A stretch of 64,000 nucleotides of DNA from NCBI GenBank assembly GCA_028279595.1, contig JANQNK010000020.1, forward strand, positions 192,001 to 256,000, given 5' to 3'. The notes under the pieces are model-generated. The model saw nothing but the letters and a program-made list of their open reading frames with translations, had not been told where the DNA came from and did no database searches. Both the position numbers and the translations under genes were made by a program. Positions 3-16,945 of this stretch are shown here, piece by piece (within the stretch, counting starts at the first letter, position 1; each line of letters begins with the position of its first letter). The stretch comes from Thermoplasmatota archaeon. Its GTDB lineage: Archaea; Thermoplasmatota; JAKEGO01.

Positions 3-3000
3 AATACCGTCTATGCCCAGAACATCAACATCAGCGGGAACACGACGTGGGACGCCTCCAACATAATGATGGACTGTACCTCGGACCTCGAGTACCACAT
101 CTGGGTGCATAACGGGGGCGAACTGAACATAATCAACGACACCATGGTGTCCAGGAACGGCTCTTTCAACTACGAGTTCCAGCTGCAGACCGGCGGTGCC
201 CTGTTCATCAAGGATTCCATCATCGAGTACATCGGTTCCTCATCGGGAACGGGCAACGGTGAATACGGTCTCTATCTCGGAGCTTCCGCTACCATCGTGA
301 ACGGTACCTTCAGGAACTCGTACAACGGGATACTCACCGACGCATCCGGCATCGACATCTCGATGTCGACCTTCGGTTCCAACACGAGGTACGACCTTCG
401 CACCGTCAGCTCCGACGATGTGATGGCGGAGGACAACTACTGGGGATCCGTCGACGAGGTCGATATCAGGACCGGGATCCACGACAGCGTGGAGAACGCC
501 GGACTGGGTACTGTCGACTACTCGCCTTGGTACGACGCGACCTTCATGACCCAGTACAACACAGATACCGACGCCCCCTCGATCACGATCAACATGCCAA
601 TGGACAACTCGACCTACAACGCGATGGTCGAGATCAATGCAACGGTCACGGACCTCAACAGGAACGACACGGATGTCTGGTACAGGTGGGACATGGGCAC
701 GCCAGAACTATTACCTCTCGACTCCGGGGACTGGTTCTCCATCATGAACGATACAACCCTTCTCATGGATGGAACCCACAACCTGACGGTCATCGCCTAC
801 GACGAGATCGGAAACCAGGCTATGGAGACCACGGAGGACATCATCATCGACAATGGCCTTCCAACGATATTCATCGACTCGCCTGGTGAGGGCTTGGTGA
901 TCGGCGGTTCCGTGGAGATCAACTCATCCGTCGTCGACGACAATCGGAACGACACGGATGTCTGGTACTGGTGGGACTCGGATGCTCCGACCATTCTACC
1001 TTACGACACGGGCGATTTCTTCATGACATCGTTCGACACCACGACACTTTCGGACGGCGTCCACAACCTCACGGTCAAGGCGGTCGATGAACTCGGCAAC
1101 GAGAACATGACGACAGTCGAGAACATCGAGGTGGACAACACCGCGCCGACGATAGTGATCCTCGAACCTACGGCGGACGAATACGAATCAAAGCGGGTTA
1201 ACGTAACGGTTAACATCACAGATGCCAACAGGAATGACGCGGACGTCTGGTACTGGTTCACCGACGAGGGACCGGCAGCACTTCCCTTCGACAGCGGCGA
1301 CACGTTCTCCGGCTTCAACAACACCCTGGGCGAGGGCATCACGGAGGGTTACATCAACGTGACCATCAGGGCCATCGACCTCGTGGGGAACTCGGCTGAC
1401 GCCGTCGTCAACTTCACCCTCGACAACACCGCTCCGACCATCGTCATCAACCTCCCTGGGATGGACGACGTGATAGCCGGTGTCGTCGACCTCAACGCCA
1501 CCATAACCGACGACAACCTCGACACGTCGACGATCACATTCAGGTACTTCCTCAATGACCCGACCGATCTGCCCGTCCATTGGGGCGACTTCTACACGGC
1601 CTCGAACGATTCCGTGGCCGAGGGATGGCTCGATGACGACGCCAACGTGACCGTGATGGCATCCGACCTCTCGGGCAACATGGCCCAGGAGACGGTCGAC
1701 ATAATCATCGACAACACAGCTCCGGTGGTCAACCTTGGTCTGATAACCGACACGACCATCGGCTCGACGAGCCTTGTGAAGGACGGAGATGATGTTAGCG
1801 TCTACGCATTGGTAACCGATGACAACATACACAATATCACGGCGAACCTGACCGACCTCGGAGGATCGATGTACGAAACCCCGACGGATGAGAACCTCGC
1901 GACCGGTGAATTCTGGTGGAACCTCACCGGAGTGACCTGCACGCCCTCCGACGGAGAGATCAACGTCTCGGTAGTGACATATGACGAGGCGATGGCATCG
2001 GATTCCGATCACTCCATCACATTGTCCGACAACACCGCACCCATGGTAGCGATCAACATGCCAACGGAATCCGACATAATGGGGGGCAACATCACCATCA
2101 ACGCAACGGTCACCGACCTGAACAGGAATGACACCGATGTATGGTACTGGTCCCAGAACAAGGGACCGACCCTGCTTCCACTCATCACGGGAGACTGGTT
2201 CGAAGCGACGAACGATAGCGCAGCCTATGGATGGAAACAGAACAACAATGTGATCACGGTCAAAGCGGTCGACCTCGCCGGGAACGAGAAGACCTTAGTG
2301 GTCAATATTACGGTGGACAACACCATTCCGTCGGTCGAGATAACGGCACCTTTAAGGAACGACGAGATCGCTGGCGAGGTGACTATAACCGCCACTGTCA
2401 CGGATACGAACAGGAACGACACCGACGTCTGGTTCTGGTACGATGGCATTGCACCGGCTCTCCTGCCCTACGACTCCGACGATGAGTTCACGATCACTGT
2501 GAACAGCTCGGCGGACAATTGGACAGACGGAAGGGCTTACATAAACATCAAGGCCGTCGACCTGGCGGGAAATGAGAATTCAACCGAGACGGTCAGGATC
2601 GATGTGGACAACACTGCGCCCACTATCACATACGTTCATCCCCTGAATGGGACCTACCATGCTGGAACGATCCCGGTCAATGTCACCGTCGCCGACGTCA
2701 ACAGGAACGATGGCAAGGTGAGGTTCTGGATCGACGACATGAGCGAGAAGTGGAGGGTCAATCACTCCACCGAGAACAACTTCTCCGCAGAGCTTGTCAC
2801 CATCAACACGGAAAAAGAGCCTCCGAAGGTTGGCGTGGACGACGGCATTCACACGATGATAATCACCGCGGAGGACACCTACGGCAACAAGGGAAGGGAG
2901 ACGATAGAGTTCTTCGTCGACAACAAAAGACCGCTCGTCAATTTCATCTCACCGCTGGACGGTGAATACTACAATGGGACCTTCGAGCTCAACATCACCG

Positions 3001-6000
3001 TCACTGATACAGTGGGCCGTAACAATTCGGCGGTATGGTACTGGTTCGATGGCGATGAGGCCAATCCGATCCAGCTGCCCTATAACACCGGAGACTGGTT
3101 CACAACGACGATCGACACCGTCGCCCTAGGATGGGAGGACGGTGAACATACCTTGGACATCAACACCACGGACCTTGCCGGAAACTACAAGATCACGAAC
3201 ACCAACGGCTCCTCCCAGACGATAACCTTCACCGTCGACAACACGATCCCAGAGATCAACGTCACATCATTCATGGATGGGGATTATCTTTCCGGCACCG
3301 TCGATATCAGGATCCTGATCAACGAGACCAACCTCGATGAGGATGACGTCTGGTACTGGTGGAACGAAGAGGCCATGGATAATCTCCCGCTCATCTCCGG
3401 TAACGAGTTCGGCACGACATTCGATACCGAGACCGTAAGCGATGGTCTCAACAACATATCCTTCATGGTGGTCGATCTGGCGGGTAACTCGAACATGACG
3501 TCCATTGTCAACTTGATCTTTGACAATACCGTTCCCGAGATATTCATACAAACTCCTCTTGACGACGCTGTCGTCGACGGATGGATCGAGGTCAATGTCA
3601 GCGTTATCGATCTAAACATCGGGAACGAGAACGAATCCGTCTATTACTCCTGGCAGGGGGATGAACACTCACTCAACGCGACCGGTGATACATATTACAA
3701 CACCACGATCAATACCTCACGACTGACCGAGGGATCTTCAACGTTCACCATCTACACGTACGATAATGCATCGAACTACAACTCCGCACAAATAACGATA
3801 ATCATCGACAGGACGGACCCGGTCCTGTTCTCGGACACACTCACTGATGGGTCGTTCGCCCTAGGGACGTACGACCTCGAGGTCGAGGTCACCGAGACCA
3901 ACATCAACCAATCCATGGTGTTCTACACGTTCAACGGGACGGACTACCCGATGACGCATCTCGTGGGTATCACGTACAATGCGACCTTCAACACCAGCCA
4001 CTTCGCCGACGGGCTCTACCAGATAGAGTACAAGGCGTATGACCTGGCGGGGCACTTCGGAAACACCACCCATATCAACATAACAATAGACAACACCCTG
4101 CCGGAGCTGGAGCTCCTCTCACCGATGGACAACAGTCTGCTCAGCGGCGATGTGACCATCAGCGTCAACGTCAACGACACCAACATTGACAATTCCAGCG
4201 TCAGCTTCCTTGTCACTGGCAACCTCGAGCAGTTCCTCAGCAACGATACGACCCCGGACGATTGGCATTTCGAGAGCGTGAACGATACCGTGGATGAGGA
4301 CTGGGAGGAAGGCAACCTGACCATCACCATTCGCGCCATCGACCTCGCTGGCAACATGAACGAGACCTCCATCGATGTCGTGCTCGACAACACGGATCCG
4401 GGATTCAGTGACGTAATGCCTGAAGAGAACGAATTCCTCAACGGAACCTTCACGATCTCCGTCACGATCGACGAGGACCACCTCGACCCCGCGAACGTCA
4501 CTTGGCACAGGAGCGGCGAGGACTTCGAACCGATGGACACTGACGACAACATCACCTTCTACAAGGTCATCGACACGATCACTGACGGCTGGGACGATGG
4601 TGTCGAGACCATCACGATCCGGGCTATCGATAATGCGACGAACAGGAATACCCAGGATATCCTCATCGTCATCGACAACACCTTCCCGACGATCGAGATC
4701 ATCGATCCCGAGGAGGGCGCCATTGTCCTTCAGACCCATACCTTCGTTGCCGAGGTCGATGACGACACCACGACGACATCTCTCCTTACAGTCGAGATCG
4801 ACCTCGACGGTGACGGGGATTACGACGATGAGATGGACCATCAGAGTACAGACGGCACTGTCCTAACCTATTCCCACGAGGAGACGAACATGGACATCGG
4901 CCCCTACCGGCTGGACGTTCGAGTGACGGACCGTGCGGGGAATTCCGCCAATATGTCCGTGAACTATACGGTGCGTTCGGCGGACATTGTGGACCCGCAG
5001 GTCGAGATCGTCTATCCTGACATCTGCATCGAGGACGTCTACTACGTCGACGACACCGACTTCACTTTCTCGGTAAGGATGATCGACGAGAGCTTCAACG
5101 AGACGGGCATCGAGTACGAGCTCCCGGACTCGGAGGAGCGCTTCCCGATGGACTATGACTCCTTCGACGATGTCTTCGAGGCCGACCTTCAGCTGCTCGA
5201 GGATGAATACATGATCACGATACATGCCACCGACGCATCGGAGAACTACAGGAAGTACGAATTCGATGTGGTCGTCGACGCCACCGCCCCGAACGTGACG
5301 ATAACATCGGTCGCGACCGATGGGGCCGTGGGAGCCAACTTCTCCCTGAAGGCCACGGTAAAGGACAAGAACGACGACCGGTCCGCTGTGATGTGGAACT
5401 CGGACATCAACACGACATTCGCACCGATGGAATGGAAGTCCGGCAACGCATATTCGGTCAAGGTCAACACCACCGAGTGGGACTATGGCACCTTTTCGAT
5501 GACCGTCGAGGCCTACGACCTCGCCGGGAACAAGGGTAGTGCCACGGTCGTCAATGTGGAGTATGAGGAGACAGTTCCCATTGTCGACATCCTCACTCCC
5601 GAAGCGGATGAGGAGATATTGGAGGAGTTCAACTTCACCGTGGAGATCACGGATGACTACGTCGATCCGATGAACGTCTGGTTGGTACTCGACGACGAGC
5701 CCGAGGTCCAGATGTGGATCAACAACGACACCGAGGACGAGTTCTGGCGGTACATCGAGGACATTGACGTCGGATATCACTGGGTCGAGGTCTACACCGA
5801 GGACCTGGCAGGGAACTGGGCGAACGCGAGCCTTAAGTTCCGCGTTGTCAAGACCGAGGAGCAGACGATCAGGGTCGGTGGAGGCATCGAGGTCATCGTC
5901 ACCTATCAGGGGAATGGCGTAACGGCCGAGGTGCCCGATACGATTCCGACTGGAGAACCGGCGAACCGGATTTCTCTCGACATGTATGTGGAGATCAGCC

Positions 6001-6818
6001 TCGAACCGGACACGACACTTCTATCGGCCACCATCGAGTTCTCGTACGCCGCCGCCACTGGGATCAAGAAGATCGACAAGACGGCCATCGAGGTATATGT
6101 GTGGGGCTCATGGATACTCGTCGGGGATTATACGAACGAGCCGGGCCAGAGCGTGATAACCGCGAACGTCGACGAGGTAGGTATATACGCAGTGTTCGGT
6201 GGTGAAAAGGAGGACAGCACTGGACCATCAGATCCCAGCGGAGACGGCGGAGGCGGAGACGACGCCGGGCTCCCGATGGAGTTGATCCTGATCATCGTCG
6301 TGGTGGTCGTGGTCGTCCTCGTCCTCGTGATGAGGAAGAAGAAGAAGGGCGAGGAGGTGGACACGAAGGAGCCGGCGAAGCCCGACGCACAGTTCGCCGA
6401 CGGTCAACCTACGGGTGTCGTGACCGGTCCAGGCATCGGTCCGCTGGCACCGCTAACGCCCCCTGAACCGAAACCAGCACCTGCGCTTGCCGAGTGCTCG
6501 AACTGTGGAGCGATCATCAGGATGGACGCCAAGGAGTGTCCGAAGTGCGGCGCTGTATTCGACGAGGACCCGTTCGGATTCGACGATGAGGAGTTCGACG
6601 ACGAGGAGGACGAGGGCGGAGCAGAGGGCGAACCGGAGACACCGGCGGAGGGTGAGGCACCGGCCGAACCCACCGAGGAGGGGGCCGAGACACCCCCGCC
6701 CGCAGCTGAACCAGCACCCCCGCAGGAGGGCGAGATCCCGCCGCAGCCGCTCCAACCGGTCGACCCGTTGCTGGTGGACCAGCAGCAGCAGCCACCAGCC
6801 CCTCCTCCGCAGCAGTGA
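3..6818 (+). CDS. Large cell-surface protein (5'-partial): beta-helix region, ~18 bacterial Ig-like repeats, C-terminal TM, cytoplasmic Zn-ribbon and acidic/Pro-rich tail
   Basis: Frame is open from nt 3, so the start lies outside the window. N-terminal beta-helix-like segment ends in AEDNYWG...VDYSPW. About 18 repeats of D-N-T-x-P-x-I...DG-x-H-x-L-T-V-x-A-x-D-L-A-G-N with many N-x-S/T sequons. TM LILIIVVVVVVVLVLV followed by RKKKK; CSNC..CPKC. Confidence 0.85.
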   Translation, partial: NTVYAQNINISGNTTWDASNIMMDCTSDLEYHIWVHNGGELNIINDTMVSRNGSFNYEFQLQTGGALFIKDSIIEYIGSSSGTGNGEYGLYLGASATIVNGTFRNSYNGILTDASGIDISMSTFGSNTRYDLRTVSSDDVMAEDNYWGSVDEVDIRTGIHDSVENAGLGTVDYSPWYDATFMTQYNTDTDAPSITINMPMDNSTYNAMVEINATVTDLNRNDTDVWYRWDMGTPELLPLDSGDWFSIMNDTTLLMDGTHNLTVIAYDEIGNQAMETTEDIIIDNGLPTIFIDSPGEGLVIGGSVEINSSVVDDNRNDTDVWYWWDSDAPTILPYDTGDFFMTSFDTTTLSDGVHNLTVKAVDELGNENMTTVENIEVDNTAPTIVILEPTADEYESKRVNVTVNITDANRNDADVWYWFTDEGPAALPFDSGDTFSGFNNTLGEGITEGYINVTIRAIDLVGNSADAVVNFTLDNTAPTIVINLPGMDDVIAGVVDLNATITDDNLDTSTITFRYFLNDPTDLPVHWGDFYTASNDSVAEGWLDDDANVTVMASDLSGNMAQETVDIIIDNTAPVVNLGLITDTTIGSTSLVKDGDDVSVYALVTDDNIHNITANLTDLGGSMYETPTDENLATGEFWWNLTGVTCTPSDGEINVSVVTYDEAMASDSDHSITLSDNTAPMVAINMPTESDIMGGNITINATVTDLNRNDTDVWYWSQNKGPTLLPLITGDWFEATNDSAAYGWKQNNNVITVKAVDLAGNEKTLVVNITVDNTIPSVEITAPLRNDEIAGEVTITATVTDTNRNDTDVWFWYDGIAPALLPYDSDDEFTITVNSSADNWTDGRAYINIKAVDLAGNENSTETVRIDVDNTAPTITYVHPLNGTYHAGTIPVNVTVADVNRNDGKVRFWIDDMSEKWRVNHSTENNFSAELVTINTEKEPPKVGVDDGIHTMIITAEDTYGNKGRETIEFFVDNKRPLVNFISPLDGEYYNGTFELNITVTDTVGRNNSAVWYWFDGDEANPIQLPYNTGDWFTTTIDTVALGWEDGEHTLDINTTDLAGNYKITNTNGSSQTITFTVDNTIPEINVTSFMDGDYLSGTVDIRILINETNLDEDDVWYWWNEEAMDNLPLISGNEFGTTFDTETVSDGLNNISFMVVDLAGNSNMTSIVNLIFDNTVPEIFIQTPLDDAVVDGWIEVNVSVIDLNIGNENESVYYSWQGDEHSLNATGDTYYNTTINTSRLTEGSSTFTIYTYDNASNYNSAQITIIIDRTDPVLFSDTLTDGSFALGTYDLEVEVTETNINQSMVFYTFNGTDYPMTHLVGITYNATFNTSHFADGLYQIEYKAYDLAGHFGNTTHINITIDNTLPELELLSPMDNSLLSGDVTISVNVNDTNIDNSSVSFLVTGNLEQFLSNDTTPDDWHFESVNDTVDEDWEEGNLTITIRAIDLAGNMNETSIDVVLDNTDPGFSDVMPEENEFLNGTFTISVTIDEDHLDPANVTWHRSGEDFEPMDTDDNITFYKVIDTITDGWDDGVETITIRAIDNATNRNTQDILIVIDNTFPTIEIIDPEEGAIVLQTHTFVAEVDDDTTTTSLLTVEIDLDGDGDYDDEMDHQSTDGTVLTYSHEETNMDIGPYRLDVRVTDRAGNSANMSVNYTVRSADIVDPQVEIVYPDICIEDVYYVDDTDFTFSVRMIDESFNETGIEYELPDSEERFPMDYDSFDDVFEADLQLLEDEYMITIHATDASENYRKYEFDVVVDATAPNVTITSVATDGAVGANFSLKATVKDKNDDRSAVMWNSDINTTFAPMEWKSGNAYSVKVNTTEWDYGTFSMTVEAYDLAGNKGSATVVNVEYEETVPIVDILTPEADEEILEEFNFTVEITDDYVDPMNVWLVLDDEPEVQMWINNDTEDEFWRYIEDIDVGYHWVEVYTEDLAGNWANASLKFRVVKTEEQTIRVGGGIEVIVTYQGNGVTAEVPDTIPTGEPANRISLDMYVEISLEPDTTLLSATIEFSYAAATGIKKIDKTAIEVYVWGSWILVGDYTNEPGQSVITANVDEVGIYAVFGGEKEDSTGPSDPSGDGGGGDDAGLPMELILIIVVVVVVVLVLVMRKKKKGEEVDTKEPAKPDAQFADGQPTGVVTGPGIGPLAPLTPPEPKPAPALAECSNCGAIIRMDAKECPKCGAVFDEDPFGFDDEEFDDEEDEGGAEGEPETPAEGEAPAEPTEEGAETPPPAAEPAPPQEGEIPPQPLQPVDPLLVDQQQQPPAPPPQQ

Positions 6819-6995: not shown

Positions 6996-7045
6996 TTTAA
7001 ATCTGTAGCAGACCTGCACCTTCCGACTCTTGAACGTAGAGGTGA
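6996..7045 (+). promoter_or_regulatory. Candidate TATA box (TTTAAAT) and Shine-Dalgarno (GAGGTGA) of the poly-Hcp gene
   Basis: TTTAAAT at ~6996-7002; GAGGTGA at 7039-7045, 5 nt before ATG 7051. Confidence 0.55.
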
Positions 7046-7050
7046 AACAG

Positions 7051-10000
7051 ATGAACCCCAACATGTTGATGGGTCTCGTCGCTGTTCTGGCCGTAGCTAA
7101 TTTAGGCCTAGTTGCGACGACGACGATGGTCGTGAACGACGTAGCGAGCGACGAGGACAGCAGCGACACGATGGCTCCGGAAGTGCAACCGGATCCCATC
7201 GGGAACGCTGCGGCAATTTACGTCAAATTCGACGGTATAGACGGTGAAAGTACGGACGAGAACCACGACAAATGGATCGAGGTCCTCTCGTGGAGTCACG
7301 ACCGTGGGGCCGTAGACAGGTCAGACAACATCGGTTCCAGCGGAATGGACGGTGTGGCCTCGACCTCAATCGTCCTGACCAAGGAGCTCGACAAGGCTTC
7401 CCCGAAACTGGCGGAGATGCTCTCAACGGGCGGGACGACCGACGTCGAGTTCGAGATCTTCAGCCTCGTCGAGTACAATGACAACAACGACCTCGTCCTG
7501 AGAAAGCGGCCCGGCAGGATGGTCCAGTCCGGTATGCTCACTAATGCCTCGATAATGCACCAGACGACCATGCCCGTCGTCCTCCTTCCTGAGAGCGGGG
7601 GGACCGACCAGTCGCACATGACCACTCCCGGCCATAAGTACATTGACACCCTACGCGTAATGGGCGAGGAGATATCTCTCTCCTACGAGAAGATAACCTG
7701 GACCTACGATACGGGCGGAAAGGAGCACGAGGACGACTGGGTATCCCCGCGGGTCCTCGCCGCGAATGACATAGAGAACCCGTACTTCATTCCAGACACT
7801 CCGGGCGAATACGGCTTCGAGACTCAGTTCAACACAACCCTCACCTTCGATACCCCTGGCCGCGGTCCCGGAGACATCCCGCACAAGACCGAGATCGATC
7901 AGATCGGCCTTAGGCTAGCGATCCACCAGCCGGGAGGCGGCGCGACCGGTCAGTCCCGCAGGCGAGGCGTCCACCAGCCCGGCGGTAGTGCCACCGGCGC
8001 CACGCGAAGGAGGGGTGACGTGATCATGGAGGATATCACCTTGGTCAAGGAGCTCGACAAGGCTTCCCCGAAGCTCGCCGAGGCGCTTGCCAACGGAGAA
8101 CCTCTCGAGAACGCTACGATCATCCTGACCGAGCGTGGCTCGGGCGGCGGAGGAGGAACGGTCTACCTCAAGATAGAGCTCGAGGAGGCTATCGTCAGTT
8201 CTTATTCATCCGGCACCGGCTCGACGAGGGCGCCCGACTGGCGCGTGGAGATAGAGTTCCCGGATCGGGATGTCTCTTCAAGCAGTGGCGGGTTCGACAC
8301 CGAGATGGTCTCACTCTCGTTCCACATGGCCAATATCACATATCCGGGCGCGGGCCCCAACGGCACCGACATGGTACTGTCGGCCGATCCCATGCTTCCC
8401 CGCGACGGGCGCGTGTTCACCTCGACCTTCCTTCACATCCACGGCTTCGAAGGAGATGTTGAGATCGAGGGCCGCGAGGGCACAGTCCTCCTGCACGAGC
8501 TCGGCCACGCGATGGGCGACCCCCACACGAGGTGGGACCCACTCATGCTCGATCTGAGCCGTAGTTCGGTCTCCTTCACGAAATACATCGACAAGGCCTC
8601 TCCGTTGCTGATGCGGCGCATGAACGACGGCGGGACCCTTAACGCGACGATCTTCGTCGACGAGTACCGAACACATTCGAACGGGTCCATCGAGCGGGTC
8701 GAGTACATGAAGTACGAGCTGAAGAACGTCATGGTGACGTCCGTCTCGACCGGCGGGTCCGGCGGCGAGGACAAGCTCACCGAGAACGTCTCGCTCAACT
8801 TCGAGGAGGTCAAGACGACCTATGTGGAGATGAAGGAGTCCGCGACTTACATAGCAGGTGATCCACGCGAGGACCAGTACAGCATGGACATGTTCCTGGA
8901 CATCGAGGGCGAGGGATTCGAGGGCGAATCGACCGCTCGCGGCCACAAGGACGAGATCGACGTCCTTGCCTGGAGCTGGGGCGTATCTCAGTCCGGCTCG
9001 TTCCATGTTGGAGGCGGCGGCGGTGCTGGCAAGGCGAACTTCCAGGACATAACGATCGTCAAGCCCATCGACAAGTCATCACCGATGCTCATGCAGGCAT
9101 GGGCGAACGGCGACAGCCTTGGGAACGGAACATTGAGCCTTGTGAGGCGGGGAGAGACCAGCCCAATGGTCGAGGTCGAGATGATCAGCATGCAGCTGAC
9201 GTCCATCAGGACCGTCAGCTTCGTTCCGGAGATACCCACAGCTAGTGACGAGTCCGGGGAGTTCTGGTTCGAGGGCCTGCAGCCAGGGAGGTACGTCTTC
9301 CCCGCATTCAGTGCATCGGGGACTGGGAACCTCTACGAGGAGATAACCCTCAAACCGATCAGGCTGGAGCTTGCCTACGCAGATCCCGGCGACGGAAGCG
9401 GTGAGATCAAGGTCGTTCTCAAACACGACAACTCGGGGATCGCTCCTCCCCAGACCGAGATAACCGTCCAATATGAGGGCCTTAGGGGATTCGATCCCAA
9501 TCCTGACGACCTCTGTTACCCATGGCGCTATGAAACAGGGCTCCATGTCTCGACAGACAGACAAAGCGGAAAGATAATTGGTACCCGGATGCATTCACCG
9601 TTCTCCATCGAGACATTCTACGATCCGGCATCGCCATTCTTGAGGCAGGCACTCACCACTGGTGACGAATTCAACGTGACCGTCAGTGTTAATCGCGTCG
9701 CAGCGGACGGGTCCAAGGAGAACTTCTACCGTTACAAGCTCGTGGATGCGATAGTGTCTTCTTACTCCGTGAGTGGAAGCACAGGCGGAGATCTCCCAAC
9801 CGAACAGATATCCTTCCTATACGAGACGATGACCACTGAATACGTCCTTGACGGCATCAAGGAGGACGATCCGGGAGTGTTCGGAGGCCGTGGTGGAGGC
9901 GCCATCTATCTGCACGTGAACGGGATCGAGGGCGAGTCCACGGATTCCGGCCACGAGGGCTGGATCGACGTACTCTCGATCGACTGGGGCCTTTCATCCA

Positions 10001-11367
10001 CGACCAGGGATGCAGCATCTGGGCTTCCCACCGGCAAAAGACAGCACGAACCGGTGGAGTTGACCATCGAGTACGAGAAGGCCTCCCCGAAGTTACAGGA
10101 AGCCCTCACTAGCGGTACACCCCTCGACGCAACGGTGGAGATCTTCGAGATCGACGAGAACGGAACGATGGTCCACACCGTGACTCTGAACATGACCGAG
10201 GCCGAGATAATTTCCATCGATAGCTTCAACGGCCACGTGACCCCGCTGAAGGGTCATAATGACGCAAGCACAGGTCAATGGGCATACGTCGACAGTGGAT
10301 CGACGGTGAGAGGATTCGACACCGAGATGATCTCCATGCAGTTGACCTCATTCCGGTACTCGGAGCTCTCCGTCTACTATGAGCAGACGGGAGACCACTT
10401 CTTCGACATCTGGGTCGACCCCGAGCCCAGGGCAGGGTTCATCAAGCTCGGCGACATCAAGGGCGAGGCTACCGACGCTGACCATAACGAATGGATCGAG
10501 GTGACCGGCTACCAGCACAGCGTCACCCGCGAATTCGCCGGCTACGATCTACGCGACAACGAGACGGAAGGAAGGCTCCTTCACACGCCGTTCATCTTCA
10601 CGAAGGTGTTCGATTCGTCCAGTCCATCGATCATGGACACATACCTGAACGGGTCCCTCATTGGTGTGACCATGGACGTCACAAGGCCTATGGCCGCTGG
10701 GGCCAGTGGGTCCACGAGAACGGCCGTTACGGTGACCCTCGAGAACGCCTCCATCGAGTCGTACGAGCTCAATTACCTCGATGATGACGACGATGGCGAT
10801 GGGATCCCAGTGGAGACGGTCTCCCTGAGATATTCCCATGTCGAGTGGAAGGTCGAGGAGGGCGAGAGCCTGAGGTCGGAATGGTACGATCCCTCGATGG
10901 CTCCCAAGACGAGAGCGTCCTTCATCAAGTTCGACGGCATCGACGGCGAATCGAAGGACATCGACCATGACGGCTGGTCCGACCTGGTGGCTGTCCGCTA
11001 CAGCGTCAGCGAGGAGATCGAGGGTGCCACTGGCCTACCGACCGGCAAGACCGAGGTAAGCAGCGTCGTCGTCGTGAAGCCTGTGGACGCATCGTCGCCG
11101 TTCCTCCTGATGTCCGTGGCCAGGGGCGACGTCTACGATGTGACCATCGAGAGGTACCAGCCCGATCTCACCGCAGCTGACGGACGGGTACACTACCTGA
11201 CGATCGAGCTGGAGAACGCATCCGTGGAGCGCGCTGAGTCCATCGACGACGACTGCGACAGCGACTGTGACGACACCTGGGACGACATGGAAGAGATATC
11301 CCTGAGGTTCGAGTCCATGAAGTGGACGTGGGAACTGCTCGGTATCGAGCACGAGGACATCGGCTGA
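7051..11367 (+). CDS. Secreted or membrane-anchored protein with eight tandem Hcp1-like (type VI secretion tube) domains
   Basis: Start moved to ATG 7051 (SD). Hydrophobic N-terminus LMGLVAVLAVANLGLVA. Eight copies of the Hcp core D-x-x-S-P-x-L motif: DKASPKL x2, DKASPLL, DKSSPML, DPASPFL, EKASPKL, DSSSPSI, DASSPFL. Hcp starts such as YVKFDGIDGES, FIKLGDIKGEA and FIKFDGIDGES; Hcp ends such as EEISLSYEKITWTY and TENVSLNFEEV. Confidence 0.88.
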   Translation: MNPNMLMGLVAVLAVANLGLVATTTMVVNDVASDEDSSDTMAPEVQPDPIGNAAAIYVKFDGIDGESTDENHDKWIEVLSWSHDRGAVDRSDNIGSSGMDGVASTSIVLTKELDKASPKLAEMLSTGGTTDVEFEIFSLVEYNDNNDLVLRKRPGRMVQSGMLTNASIMHQTTMPVVLLPESGGTDQSHMTTPGHKYIDTLRVMGEEISLSYEKITWTYDTGGKEHEDDWVSPRVLAANDIENPYFIPDTPGEYGFETQFNTTLTFDTPGRGPGDIPHKTEIDQIGLRLAIHQPGGGATGQSRRRGVHQPGGSATGATRRRGDVIMEDITLVKELDKASPKLAEALANGEPLENATIILTERGSGGGGGTVYLKIELEEAIVSSYSSGTGSTRAPDWRVEIEFPDRDVSSSSGGFDTEMVSLSFHMANITYPGAGPNGTDMVLSADPMLPRDGRVFTSTFLHIHGFEGDVEIEGREGTVLLHELGHAMGDPHTRWDPLMLDLSRSSVSFTKYIDKASPLLMRRMNDGGTLNATIFVDEYRTHSNGSIERVEYMKYELKNVMVTSVSTGGSGGEDKLTENVSLNFEEVKTTYVEMKESATYIAGDPREDQYSMDMFLDIEGEGFEGESTARGHKDEIDVLAWSWGVSQSGSFHVGGGGGAGKANFQDITIVKPIDKSSPMLMQAWANGDSLGNGTLSLVRRGETSPMVEVEMISMQLTSIRTVSFVPEIPTASDESGEFWFEGLQPGRYVFPAFSASGTGNLYEEITLKPIRLELAYADPGDGSGEIKVVLKHDNSGIAPPQTEITVQYEGLRGFDPNPDDLCYPWRYETGLHVSTDRQSGKIIGTRMHSPFSIETFYDPASPFLRQALTTGDEFNVTVSVNRVAADGSKENFYRYKLVDAIVSSYSVSGSTGGDLPTEQISFLYETMTTEYVLDGIKEDDPGVFGGRGGGAIYLHVNGIEGESTDSGHEGWIDVLSIDWGLSSTTRDAASGLPTGKRQHEPVELTIEYEKASPKLQEALTSGTPLDATVEIFEIDENGTMVHTVTLNMTEAEIISIDSFNGHVTPLKGHNDASTGQWAYVDSGSTVRGFDTEMISMQLTSFRYSELSVYYEQTGDHFFDIWVDPEPRAGFIKLGDIKGEATDADHNEWIEVTGYQHSVTREFAGYDLRDNETEGRLLHTPFIFTKVFDSSSPSIMDTYLNGSLIGVTMDVTRPMAAGASGSTRTAVTVTLENASIESYELNYLDDDDDGDGIPVETVSLRYSHVEWKVEEGESLRSEWYDPSMAPKTRASFIKFDGIDGESKDIDHDGWSDLVAVRYSVSEEIEGATGLPTGKTEVSSVVVVKPVDASSPFLLMSVARGDVYDVTIERYQPDLTAADGRVHYLTIELENASVERAESIDDDCDSDCDDTWDDMEEISLRFESMKWTWELLGIEHEDIG
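7921..8016 (+). repeat. Degenerate 48-bp tandem duplication within Hcp domain 2
   Basis: IHQPGGGATGQSRRRG (7921-7968) followed by VHQPGGSATGATRRRG (7969-8016). Confidence 0.85.
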
Positions 11368-11390: not shown

Positions 11391-11439
11391 AAGCGGGGGG
11401 CGATATCCCCTCCTCCAGTCCCCCGCTTTACCCTTTTTT
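11391..11439 (+). terminator. Hairpin plus T-tract after the poly-Hcp gene
   Basis: AAGCGGGGG (11391-11399) pairs with CCCCCGCTT (11420-11428), followed by CCCTTTTTT. Confidence 0.6.
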
Positions 11440-11513: not shown

Positions 11514-12428
11514 ATGAGAAGGGGTGTGTTGATAGCCGGGGTCTCGCTTATCGCCTTCGGATTGGTCATGATGGCATTCTATATGCTCAATACGGAGTTG
11601 AACAACGAGAAGGGCACCAAACGGCTATACCCGAACGGGGAGGACGGCATCATTCTAACCGATCTCGAGAGCGGAGACGTCATCTATCTCGATTTCGAAT
11701 CAGATACCAGCGTTCACGTATGGATCTCCCCTACCGATAACCATCTCCTTGACGGAGAGCTCATGGCCACGAATTCTACGGGGGGGTCCTACTCCCAGAA
11801 GGTCGGTCAGTCGGGTTCTTGGTACATCACGTTCCAGAACCTCGACAGCGAGAACGACAATCACGTCGAGTACGACATCCAGGTCCAGAACTGGATAGGT
11901 CAGATCACTCTCATACTGGCACCTGTCTTCATCATCTTCGGCGCCGTCGTGGCTGTGGCCGGATATCGTTTAGAGAAGATCGACAAGTCCGAGATGGAGG
12001 TCAAGCTCCTGGACAAGTCCAAGAAGGGCAAGCCCGGGGCGAAGGGGAAGACGAAGGTCGTCAAGGGAAAGCCCGTCAAGAAGACCCAGAAGAAGAGGCC
12101 CAAGGCCACGGTCTTCGAGACGGAGGATGACACCTTCGAGCCGGAGCCCAAGGAGGACCTGCCCGCATGGGACGCCGTCGACAGGGTCGAACGCGAACGG
12201 CGACCCGAACGGAAGGAGGACACCGGATGGGCGGACGGGCCCAAGTCCGAGCCAGAACCACCTTCTGAAGGTTTCTCCGGGTGGGCAGAGGAGGAGAAGC
12301 CCGAGGAGCCCGAGGAAGAGGAGGAGGAGGAAGAGGAGAAGAGCCTCCCCTGCGTCATGTGCGGCGGCCGTATGTTCAGGGACGCAAGCACGGAATGGGT
12401 CTGCGACCGGTGCGGAAACCGGATCTGA
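11514..12428 (+). CDS. Hypothetical two-TM membrane protein with an external beta-sandwich, Lys-rich and acidic cytoplasmic region and C-terminal Zn-ribbon
   Basis: TM1 at the N-terminus, TM2 ITLILAPVFIIFGAVVAVAG, K-rich stretch, poly-E, CVMC...CDRC. Confidence 0.75.
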   Translation: MRRGVLIAGVSLIAFGLVMMAFYMLNTELNNEKGTKRLYPNGEDGIILTDLESGDVIYLDFESDTSVHVWISPTDNHLLDGELMATNSTGGSYSQKVGQSGSWYITFQNLDSENDNHVEYDIQVQNWIGQITLILAPVFIIFGAVVAVAGYRLEKIDKSEMEVKLLDKSKKGKPGAKGKTKVVKGKPVKKTQKKRPKATVFETEDDTFEPEPKEDLPAWDAVDRVERERRPERKEDTGWADGPKSEPEPPSEGFSGWAEEEKPEEPEEEEEEEEEKSLPCVMCGGRMFRDASTEWVCDRCGNRI

Positions 12429-14756: not shown

Positions 14757-16028
14757 TCAGTGCTGCCACATGGGAAGGACCCTTTCGTAACCCATGAGCT
14801 TCACTCCGGCCACTGTCGCTGCCTCGTATGTCATTCCCCTGACATCGTCAAGGCCGACCTCGGTGATGGAATGGTGCCCTGTGAGGGCTATGAGCATCCT
14901 CAGCTCCTGGTCGAGCGCCTTGATGTAGTTGTCGACGCCCCTGGCAGCCCCCTTCGGCAGCTTACCTGGCTCGCCCGTGATGCCTACCCTGCAGTCGCCC
15001 TTGACGCAGTTCTCGTAGCACCCGGTGCAGCCCATCGCCACAAGGAAGGGAAGGTCGAGACCGACGGCATCCGCGCCCATGGCCAGGGCCTTGAAGATGT
15101 CGGCCGACGTCATCATGCCGCCGTTCACGATCAGCTTGATGCTCGAGTCCTTCATCCCGGCCAGCTTGAAGCCGCGCTGGACCCCGCCGAATATCCCCAG
15201 GATGGGTGTGCCCACCTCGTTCCCGACGATCGACGGCACTGCCGTCCCGATGGCTTCGGATGCGTCCACCACGATGGCGTCCACGCCTGCCTCCACGGCG
15301 ATCTTGACGTCGTCGATGAGGTTCCCGGCGCCGAACTTCAGCAATATCGGTATCTTCCGGTCCGTGGTCTCCCGGACCATCTCGACGATGTACTTGATGT
15401 CCTCGGGGGTGTCCATGTCCAGGTGCTTGGACGGGCTGAGCGCGTCGGCCCCCTTCGGGAGGGCCCGTATCTCGCTCATCTCGTCTGTGATCTTCTCGGC
15501 GAATAGGATCCCACCCATACCGGGCTTCGATCCATGCCCAAGGGATATCTCCACGGCGTCCGCGGACCTAAGACCGTCTAAGTCCACAGAGAACCTTCCG
15601 GATGCCATCTGGGCGATGACCTTGCCGCCGTTGGCCAGGGTCTTCGCCTCCTCCGGGGACAGGCCGCCCTCGGCGGCATTGAACGTGATGTCGTGCTCGG
15701 CCGCGGCCTTCACGAGGACCCGCCTCGCATCTGTCGAAAGGGCACCCAGCGATAGGGGAGCCATCATGTACGGCCTTTCCAGCGTGAGCGGCCTCTCCAG
15801 GCCCGATCCGATGACCACCTTCGTCTCGACGAGCGTCCGCATGGAATCGTTCGGGAGCCTTGCGGCCTGCGCGGGAGTGATCACGATGCTGTCGAGGTCG
15901 GGGTGCTTGCGCACCATCCCGAACCCGCGCATCGGGGCCCGTCCAAGCTCCGACGACAGGCGGACATGCTGGACCGACCTGTTGAACCAGGTGTCCTCGT
16001 CGATGACCGGCGTCTCCTTCTTCGGCAT
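14757..16028 (-). CDS. FMN-binding glutamate synthase family protein (GltB domain 2-like)
   Basis: SLGALS, QMASGRF, EISLGHGSKPGMGGIL, SPSKHLD, DIFKALAMGADAVG and Cys cluster CTGCYENCVKGDC. Confidence 0.88.
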   Translation of the reverse strand: MPKKETPVIDEDTWFNRSVQHVRLSSELGRAPMRGFGMVRKHPDLDSIVITPAQAARLPNDSMRTLVETKVVIGSGLERPLTLERPYMMAPLSLGALSTDARRVLVKAAAEHDITFNAAEGGLSPEEAKTLANGGKVIAQMASGRFSVDLDGLRSADAVEISLGHGSKPGMGGILFAEKITDEMSEIRALPKGADALSPSKHLDMDTPEDIKYIVEMVRETTDRKIPILLKFGAGNLIDDVKIAVEAGVDAIVVDASEAIGTAVPSIVGNEVGTPILGIFGGVQRGFKLAGMKDSSIKLIVNGGMMTSADIFKALAMGADAVGLDLPFLVAMGCTGCYENCVKGDCRVGITGEPGKLPKGAARGVDNYIKALDQELRMLIALTGHHSITEVGLDDVRGMTYEAATVAGVKLMGYERVLPMWQH

Positions 16029-16945
16029 CAGTTCCCCTCCTTCGATTTCTTGAGGTCGTCCATCAGTTTCTCGCGCTTGGACCTGATCTGGGCCAATTTA
16101 CGTTCGAGGTCCTCGGTCCGGCTGACCTGGTCGTCCTCGTCGTCCTCCTCGGCCTTGACTATCGGGCCCGTCGGCGCAGCCGGCTCCTCGACGGCTCCAA
16201 TATCGACGATCTCCGGGACCGTCTCCTCGACGGCCTCGACCTGGATGACCTCCTCATGGGCCTCCTCGTCCTCCAGGTCCGGCGCCGCGAACTCCTCCTC
16301 GGCCTCGAAGAACGGTCTCGTCTTCTCGGCAGTGATCTTCCTGAGGGTCGTGACCCCCTTGACGTCGTAGGCCTCGAGGTACTTCACCACGGCGGCGACC
16401 TCCTCCTCCGTCGCCTGGGTCTCCACGGTGTTCTTCCCCCGCTCGGTGATCGTCCCGCCGACGTATATCTCACCGCCGATCATCCACTGGCCCAGATGGG
16501 CTCCGGCGTTCCCCGTGATGACGAGGGTTCCGCCCTGCATGTACTCGCCGACGTAGGAGCCCGCGTAGCCATCGATAACGAGTATTCCGCCCTGCATGTT
16601 CAGGCCCACCCTGTCGCCAGCGTTGCCCTGGACGATGAGGTTCCCTCCACGCATGTAAACACCGGACCCGGTCGCGACGTGTCCCTGGATAATTACCTCG
16701 CCTCCGGACATGTTGTCGCAGACGTAGCGTCCCGCGGGACCCTGGAGGGTCAGTCTGCCACCTCCGTTGAATGCGCCGAAATAGTCGCCGCCAACACCGG
16801 ATATCCGGGTCTTTCCCTTCTGGATGCCCACCGCTATGCAGTGCTGGCCGGTCAGACCCTCGATCTTCACGACCTTGCCCATCTCGATGAGCTTCTTGAT
16901 CTGCTCGTTGATCGTCCTGGAATCGTATACGACCTCTCCGGCCAT
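16028..16945 (-). CDS. GXGXG beta-helix protein (glutamate synthase domain 3-like) with acidic C-terminal extension
   Basis: Repeated G-x-A-G-x-x-x-G-x-x-M-x-G-G units; stop overlaps the next start codon. Confidence 0.85.
   Translation of the reverse strand: MAGEVVYDSRTINEQIKKLIEMGKVVKIEGLTGQHCIAVGIQKGKTRISGVGGDYFGAFNGGGRLTLQGPAGRYVCDNMSGGEVIIQGHVATGSGVYMRGGNLIVQGNAGDRVGLNMQGGILVIDGYAGSYVGEYMQGGTLVITGNAGAHLGQWMIGGEIYVGGTITERGKNTVETQATEEEVAAVVKYLEAYDVKGVTTLRKITAEKTRPFFEAEEEFAAPDLEDEEAHEEVIQVEAVEETVPEIVDIGAVEEPAAPTGPIVKAEEDDEDDQVSRTEDLERKLAQIRSKREKLMDDLKKSKEGN

Follow-up and report, generated by a model that had tools for sequence, protein, structure and literature searches.

A gene in a 64,000-nucleotide stretch of contig JANQNK010000020.1 from a Thermoplasmatota archaeon (positions 192,001 to 256,000, here called the window) encodes eight Hcp domains in one chain, a conserved, real and undescribed variant of the Hcp fold that we refer to as the poly-Hcp protein. 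Hcp is treated as a hallmark of type VI secretion (T6SS), and annotation pipelines name the poly-Hcp proteins TssD. We tentatively favor an arrangement in which several chains, most simply six, are anchored in the membrane and stack their domains into a glycosylated surface stalk of seven to nine rings. No description of an exported or multi-domain Hcp in archaea was found in titles and abstracts, a search whose coverage excluded most subscription papers.

A preliminary description, made from the DNA alone, had proposed eight Hcp domains with up to eight matches to Pfam family PF05638. Indeed, PF05638 matches eight stretches of the protein (E = 5e-183 overall), TIGR03344 likewise matches eight, and each domain taken alone passes the curated PF05638 cut-off (E = 4.7e-27 to 3.6e-18), at coordinates within a few tens of bases of those first given. 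All eight domains span at least 85 columns of an Hcp profile built for the purpose (163 columns) and are full-length Hcp domains, not fragments; in domain 2 the first ~17 profile columns are unrecognizable, and domains 2 and 5 have degenerate first strands. The eight-domain open reading frame is thus confirmed, and its ATG is the start codon in the orthologs too. Its features, in window coordinates and all on the forward strand, are:

7039-7045, +: Shine-Dalgarno-like site GAGGTGA, seen in the sequence 5 nt ahead of the ATG
7051-11367, +: poly-Hcp gene, 1438 aa, eight Hcp domains (Pfam, TIGR03344, purpose-built profile)
7066-7134, +: hydrophobic helix at the N-terminus (aa 6-28) in which the mid-helix Asn17 is conserved; probably an uncleaved membrane anchor (hydropathy, conservation)
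7204-7746, +: Hcp domain 1 (type a); the linker after it is longer and contains Pro
7825-8385, +: Hcp domain 2 (type b), with degenerate first strand region and long variable loop
8416-8850, +: Hcp domain 3 (type c)
8881-9420, +: Hcp domain 4 (type d), nearest to canonical Hcp1, with long variable loop
9448-9864, +: Hcp domain 5 (type e)
9895-10410, +: Hcp domain 6 (type f), with long variable loop
10426-10884, +: Hcp domain 7 (extra domain x), with acidic DxDxDG-like loop
10909-11364, +: Hcp domain 8 (type g, terminal), with acidic loop and Cys pair
11391-11439, +: GC-rich inverted repeat then T run, possible terminator (by eye, low confidence)

By sequence, the solved Hcp 1Y12 is matched with E = 1e-35. 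An AlphaFold model of domains 3-8 has the Hcp strand-helix pattern, and its domain 8 superposes on the solved Hcp 4HKH, the best structural match, with a Z score of 18.8 and an rmsd of 2.0 Å. Pairwise identity among the eight domains is only 18-31%, pointing to an old expansion and not to a collapsed repeat. Given that the gene comes from metagenome-assembled genomes (MAGs) only, an assembly or binning artefact has to be considered. In addition to the low identity between domains, a separate Logan assembly argues against it, in which one contig, probably from the source sample, covers the gene with no differences and no joints; so do the orthologs present in two further genomes and in two further metagenomes. 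We find no sign of the chimera that the preliminary description had allowed for, and an artefact is almost certainly not the explanation.

All three genomes examined from the Thermoplasmatota class EX4484-6 (MAGs, 73-86% complete) carry the gene, with eight domains here, nine in genome G001 and seven in genome G002. The domains are positional orthologs, a-b-c-d-e-f-g, in an order that is fixed across the class. The host chain adds one domain, x, between f and g, which lacks a counterpart in the seven- and nine-domain orthologs and is present in P0024, and in G001 a two-domain block, b-c, is duplicated mid-chain (70% and 52% identity). Fragments from the two other metagenomes match the N-terminal half and the domain 7-8 junction. 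In a quick tree, domains a, c, e, f, g and x tentatively group with archaeal three-domain proteins, and most b and d domains with mainstream Hcp1-like sequences. The eight-membered ring initially offered as one possible assembly is unlikely, since the orthologs have seven and nine domains.

The hydrophobic N-terminal segment proposed from the sequence is present at residues 6-28 (Kyte-Doolittle window 2.33), but it looks like a retained anchor rather than a cleaved signal, with neither a basic n-region nor a conserved signal-peptidase motif. Residues 1-30 are identical in the homolog P0008 (pN 0, pS 0.36), whose domains are 36-79% identical, and the anchor is the most conserved part of the chain; a mid-helix Asn is invariant in three orthologs, and an acidic stretch follows the helix. 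The extreme conservation together with the mid-helix Asn suggests that the anchors oligomerize, and from the sequence we infer that the helix is an uncleaved N-in/C-out anchor with this second role. As first remarked, N-x-S/T sequons are many: they use 16 of the 44 Asn residues, against 7.1 ± 2.4 expected (none of 2000 shuffles reached 16), or 36% of Asn residues versus 17% in bacterial Hcps. The sequons recur at the same few Hcp-profile columns across all orthologs, columns that we take to be the outer sheet and rim of the domain. Because sequons are enriched and AglB/STT3 is encoded in all three class genomes, the protein is probably extracellular and N-glycosylated, in support of the glycosylated surface protein first suggested.

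VgrG, sheath, TssB, TssC, gp25, baseplate J and PAAR were found in none of the three class genomes, by searches whose controls worked, and the T6SS set of TssB, TssC, VgrG, TssE and PAAR turned up in none of these 73-86% complete genomes; nor was a cluster (sheath, baseplate J, gp25, spike) of an extracellular contractile injection system (eCIS) or tailocin found in the three. A gp19-type tube gene (PF06841) gave no match, in a search that had no control that scored. The lack of a T6SS nearby, pointed out from the window, is thus joined by the same negative across the available sequence of the host genome and its two relatives. The poly-Hcp protein would work in the manner of an Hcp or tail-tube polymer, yet it is not a T6SS or eCIS member, as it lacks two defining features. 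The fold identity with tail tubes and the incompleteness of the genomes could still suit a tail mimic or decoy for phage or injection-system parts, or the tube of an unassembled or unrecognized contractile system. We consider this very improbable: seven marker families with working controls were not found in three genomes, the gene has a stable, conserved distribution and not the patchy one of defense genes, a glycoprotein held in the membrane by an anchor cannot serve as a tube in the cytoplasm, and nothing positive speaks for the decoy role.

A full HMMER scan uncovered a second multi-domain group, made up of 20 bacterial clusters (<50% identity) whose chains each contain exactly six full Hcp domains (P0007, P0009-P0013, P0015, P0017, P0018, P0021, P0022, P0025, P0028, P0029, P0039, P0049, P0055, P0056, P0101 and P0137). 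Word-indexed homolog searches had returned only three to four proteins, and a related-locus search with the full protein only single bacterial Hcp loci; it was the full scan that reached the multi-domain families. No complete non-archaeal chain with at least seven Hcp domains occurred among the 150 best hits. The six-domain chains mostly have export-type N-termini, many of which we take to be of Planctomycetota type, and are without a membrane anchor of the archaeal kind. No T6SS genes lie near them in the two contigs inspected, and no paper on them was found. Their domains often group by protein in the quick tree, suggesting several separate expansions that stopped at six. AlphaFold modeled one such chain, P0012 (L048:2212-5412), with pLDDT 82 and pTM 0.80, placing consecutive domains side by side like those of T5 pb6 (Z 13-15), and on this model P0012 is a probable single-chain Hcp ring.

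Compared with these chains, the archaeal junctions are short: 27-36 residues (median 31), about 23 fewer than the median of 54 in the six-domain chains, and shorter also than the 39 that direct fusion of natural Hcps would give. The last strand is kept at the archaeal junctions and in the terminal domain, and 7-12 residues separate it from the first strand of the domain that follows. The K60-D63-E123 triad is retained in 21 of 24 archaeal domains and 26 of 31 plain Hcps versus 10 of 111 six-domain-chain domains, counts in which kin are not independent and for a triad whose role is presumed. Loop 6-7 reaches 55 residues in archaeal chains versus at most 24 in six-domain chains. Two six-domain chains are exceptions, P0028 with short junctions (27 residues) and P0010 with the triad kept. 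At the ring interface, the Pro is kept in 23 and the aromatic residue in 22 of the 24 archaeal domains.

Domain number also speaks for an anchored stalk, with seven, eight or nine in the archaeal chains, never six, versus exactly six in 20 bacterial clusters; if each domain forms its own ring with its counterparts in other chains, the unrestricted gain of one or two domains would come naturally. The AlphaFold contrast between the six-domain control (pTM 0.80) and six archaeal domains (pTM 0.53) points the same way. Structures of Hcp stacked head to tail show the C-terminus of one ring touching loop L4,5 of the ring that follows (PMC3925092). In solved Hcp, the N-terminus is on the same face as residues 96-98, and the final strand is packed against the helix of the adjacent subunit of its ring (PMC4469607). 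With the termini so placed, a short linker suits axial joining. Wild-type Hcp rings stack weakly (350 Å2 per monomer; PMC3925092), and a covalent link would thus supply what the T6SS normally provides. Three rings occupy a cell of 128.8 Å (PMC4469607), or ~4.3 nm per ring, which yields 30-39 nm for seven to nine rings.

We infer the topology, oligomer and tube as follows. The chain would be inserted N-in/C-out, with its N-terminal helix retained as anchor, and be N-glycosylated by AglB. The anchors would cluster several chains, six being the simplest number, so that like-numbered domains from different chains could form Hcp-type rings, with the short linkers holding ring on ring, head to tail. 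The product would be a non-contractile tube of seven to nine rings, about 30-39 nm long at ~4.3 nm per ring, its length set by the gene. Glycans would lie on the outside, and the variable loops, which in domains 2, 4 and 6 are as much as ~35 residues longer and at the distal end are acidic, would line or partly plug the lumen. The host genome encodes many surface proteins of 2,000-14,000 residues, and our best guess is that the stalk would act as a strut or binding conduit through this thick coat, perhaps capturing solutes or peptides; its cargo is speculative. Among the assemblies in the preliminary description, the six-chain tube of fixed length fits best.

Several observations weigh against a stalk, and many of them favor instead a single-chain ring with spares, in which six consecutive domains would close a pseudo-hexameric ring while the membrane-proximal and extra domains dangle or link chains and the loops form a binding crown. 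AlphaFold placed domains 3 and 4 side by side, like two-domain phage tubes, and the pair matches 8ED0 (Z 14.0 over 256 residues) and 5NGJ (Z 12.0); in this model of six archaeal domains (pLDDT 65, pTM 0.53) the last strand is unformed, and the placement is weak evidence, counting little either way. The alignment used for it contained 19 six-domain chains and was shallow; its shallowness and the disordered loops account for part of the lower pTM. The 27-residue junctions of P0028 indicate that short joins may be lateral, and spanning a lateral join with 7-12 extended residues would be marginal, though possible. G002 can be parsed as 1+6, its first linker being longer, a pair of genes for three-domain relatives in archaea gives 3+3, and six long-loop copies per ring would crowd the lumen or stacking face. 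The ring also has precedents in T5 pb6, which closes its ring with domain pairs, and apparently in the six-domain chains, and would accommodate the alternation of long and short loops and the two-domain repeat unit, b-c. However, two of the three orthologs have seven or eight domains after the first, the inserted domains lie mid-chain, junction length and triad are unlike those of six-domain chains, and structure-atlas alignments hint at a non-sequential domain arrangement in the archaeal model. The single-chain ring, likewise raised in the preliminary description, is therefore disfavored by the contrast with the six-domain family, and we hold it to be unlikely, if the foremost rival to the stalk.

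Junction length alone was rejected as a decisive test, a lateral join being marginal but possible and P0028 an exception, and a correlation of GES-motif loss with the helix-cap motif (same- versus neighbor-domain contacts) gave no clear pattern. A complex prediction for three copies of domains 5-6 scored ipSAE 0.01 and was not used as evidence. In fold searches of the structure atlas and of viral models, any one model matched at most two domains.

The free domain number, the setting among giant repeat surface proteins and the degenerate first strands of domains 2 and 5 would also be compatible with a cross-linked meshwork, a surface lattice or glycocalyx scaffold whose rings form with varying partner chains, or with a flexible string of monomeric spacers like the Ig repeats in the giant surface proteins nearby. 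Both are unlikely given the fixed domain order across the class, the conserved ring-interface residues and the short, rigid linkers.

Short peptide words recur tandemly in the loops of domains 1, 2, 4, 6, 7 and 8 (window 7450-11300), and also in P0003, P0005, P0024, P0144 and L045, at differing structural positions; several presumably resemble HExxH, DxDxDG, tail-tube and PKD-like pieces of unrelated families. No significant donor of the loop peptides was found elsewhere in the host genome, so current intragenomic shuffling is not supported.

Surface and housekeeping genes surround the poly-Hcp gene, a cellular neighborhood. Upstream (window 66-6818) lies a giant Ig-repeat surface protein, and downstream (window 11514-12428) a small two-helix membrane protein, a weak homolog of which follows the gene in G001. 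Both flanking membrane proteins have cytoplasmic tails that finish in an acidic, Pro-rich stretch and carry a zinc ribbon there; tails of this type recur in several giant proteins of the host genome. Further downstream are adjacent genes for glutamate-synthase-like FMN and GXGXG domains (window 14757-16945; a split, archaeal-type GltB) and a 13,750-aa surface protein of DUF7507/DUF11 repeats with a C-terminal membrane anchor (window 18358-59610). The latter has 8 sequons versus 97 ± 9 expected, and so appears to avoid N-glycosylation, unlike most giant surface proteins here.

Beyond the class, nine others of the 401 phylum genomes sampled have only one or two Hcp matches, and the eight full-domain open reading frames examined from them are all single-domain, most with a signal-like start. 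These scattered single-domain proteins of other Thermoplasmatota (L037-L044) mostly have signal-like N-termini; in L039 two such genes are adjacent, and one of them has an additional domain fused to it. Archaeal three-domain anchored Hcp proteins are encoded at L046:3188-6713 and L032:340-1956, and in L046 two three-domain genes lie side by side (3+3), next to mevalonate-pathway genes. Signal-like N-termini are found in 70 of 112 single-domain Hcp hits (P0004, P0107, P0145 and 67 more), and several of these hits are fused to extracellular domains, TSP3 and Ig-like ones among them. Judged by such N-termini, a large exported Hcp superfamily exists around the single-domain hits. A still broader proposal, which we regard as doubtful, is that the poly-Hcp proteins form a class-wide archaeal organelle, a non-contractile, anchored and glycosylated Hcp tube with a length dictated by the domain number of its single gene, no tape measure and a role as conduit or filter across the cell coat, and that they are the branch with seven to nine domains of a large and undescribed exported superfamily that also has members with one, three and six.

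Here the Hcp fold is probably at work extracellularly, in genomes that yielded no injection machine, and Hcp hits in such genomes are not evidence of a T6SS. If the tube model is true, the protein would be a naturally occurring nanotube of genetically defined length and a structure new to the archaeal envelope. Should the ring model be true instead, the poly-Hcp and six-domain chains would be natural Hcp rings, each asymmetric and made of a single chain, and useful as scaffolds whose subunits could be altered one at a time.

Pyrodictium cannulae, hollow glycoprotein surface tubes of unrelated fold, serve as a working analogy; sequence and structure searches gave no match between them and the poly-Hcp protein. 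Similar to T6SS Hcp/TssD (PDB 1Y12, 4HKH, 4W64), every poly-Hcp domain has the sequence family and fold, with ring-interface residues kept. Unlike TssD, a single ~160-aa domain without signal or anchor, the archaeal chains have seven to nine domains, an N-terminal anchor, sequons, a shortened last hairpin, long variable loops, an archaeal host and no T6SS genes found with them. Several tube-fold domains per chain are also present in T5 pb6 (5NGJ; PMC5717097), the P74-26 tube (8ED0) and VgrG/gp27 hubs, and both pb6 and 8ED0 can be superposed on the modeled pair of domains 3 and 4. However, the fused tube domains found in the literature are pairs only (pb6, PMC5717097; VgrG hubs), two side-by-side domains that form trimers in virions or spikes, whereas the poly-Hcp protein has seven to nine true Hcp domains in a probable cellular anchored glycoprotein. 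The six-domain bacterial chains are likewise multi-Hcp and differ in always having six domains, long junctions, a mostly lost triad and a confident ring-like model. In engineered G96C/S158C nanotubes, covalent head-to-tail joining stabilizes stacks that wild-type Hcp does not form by itself (PMC3925092); in the poly-Hcp protein, a natural peptide bond would make the link and the gene would fix the length.

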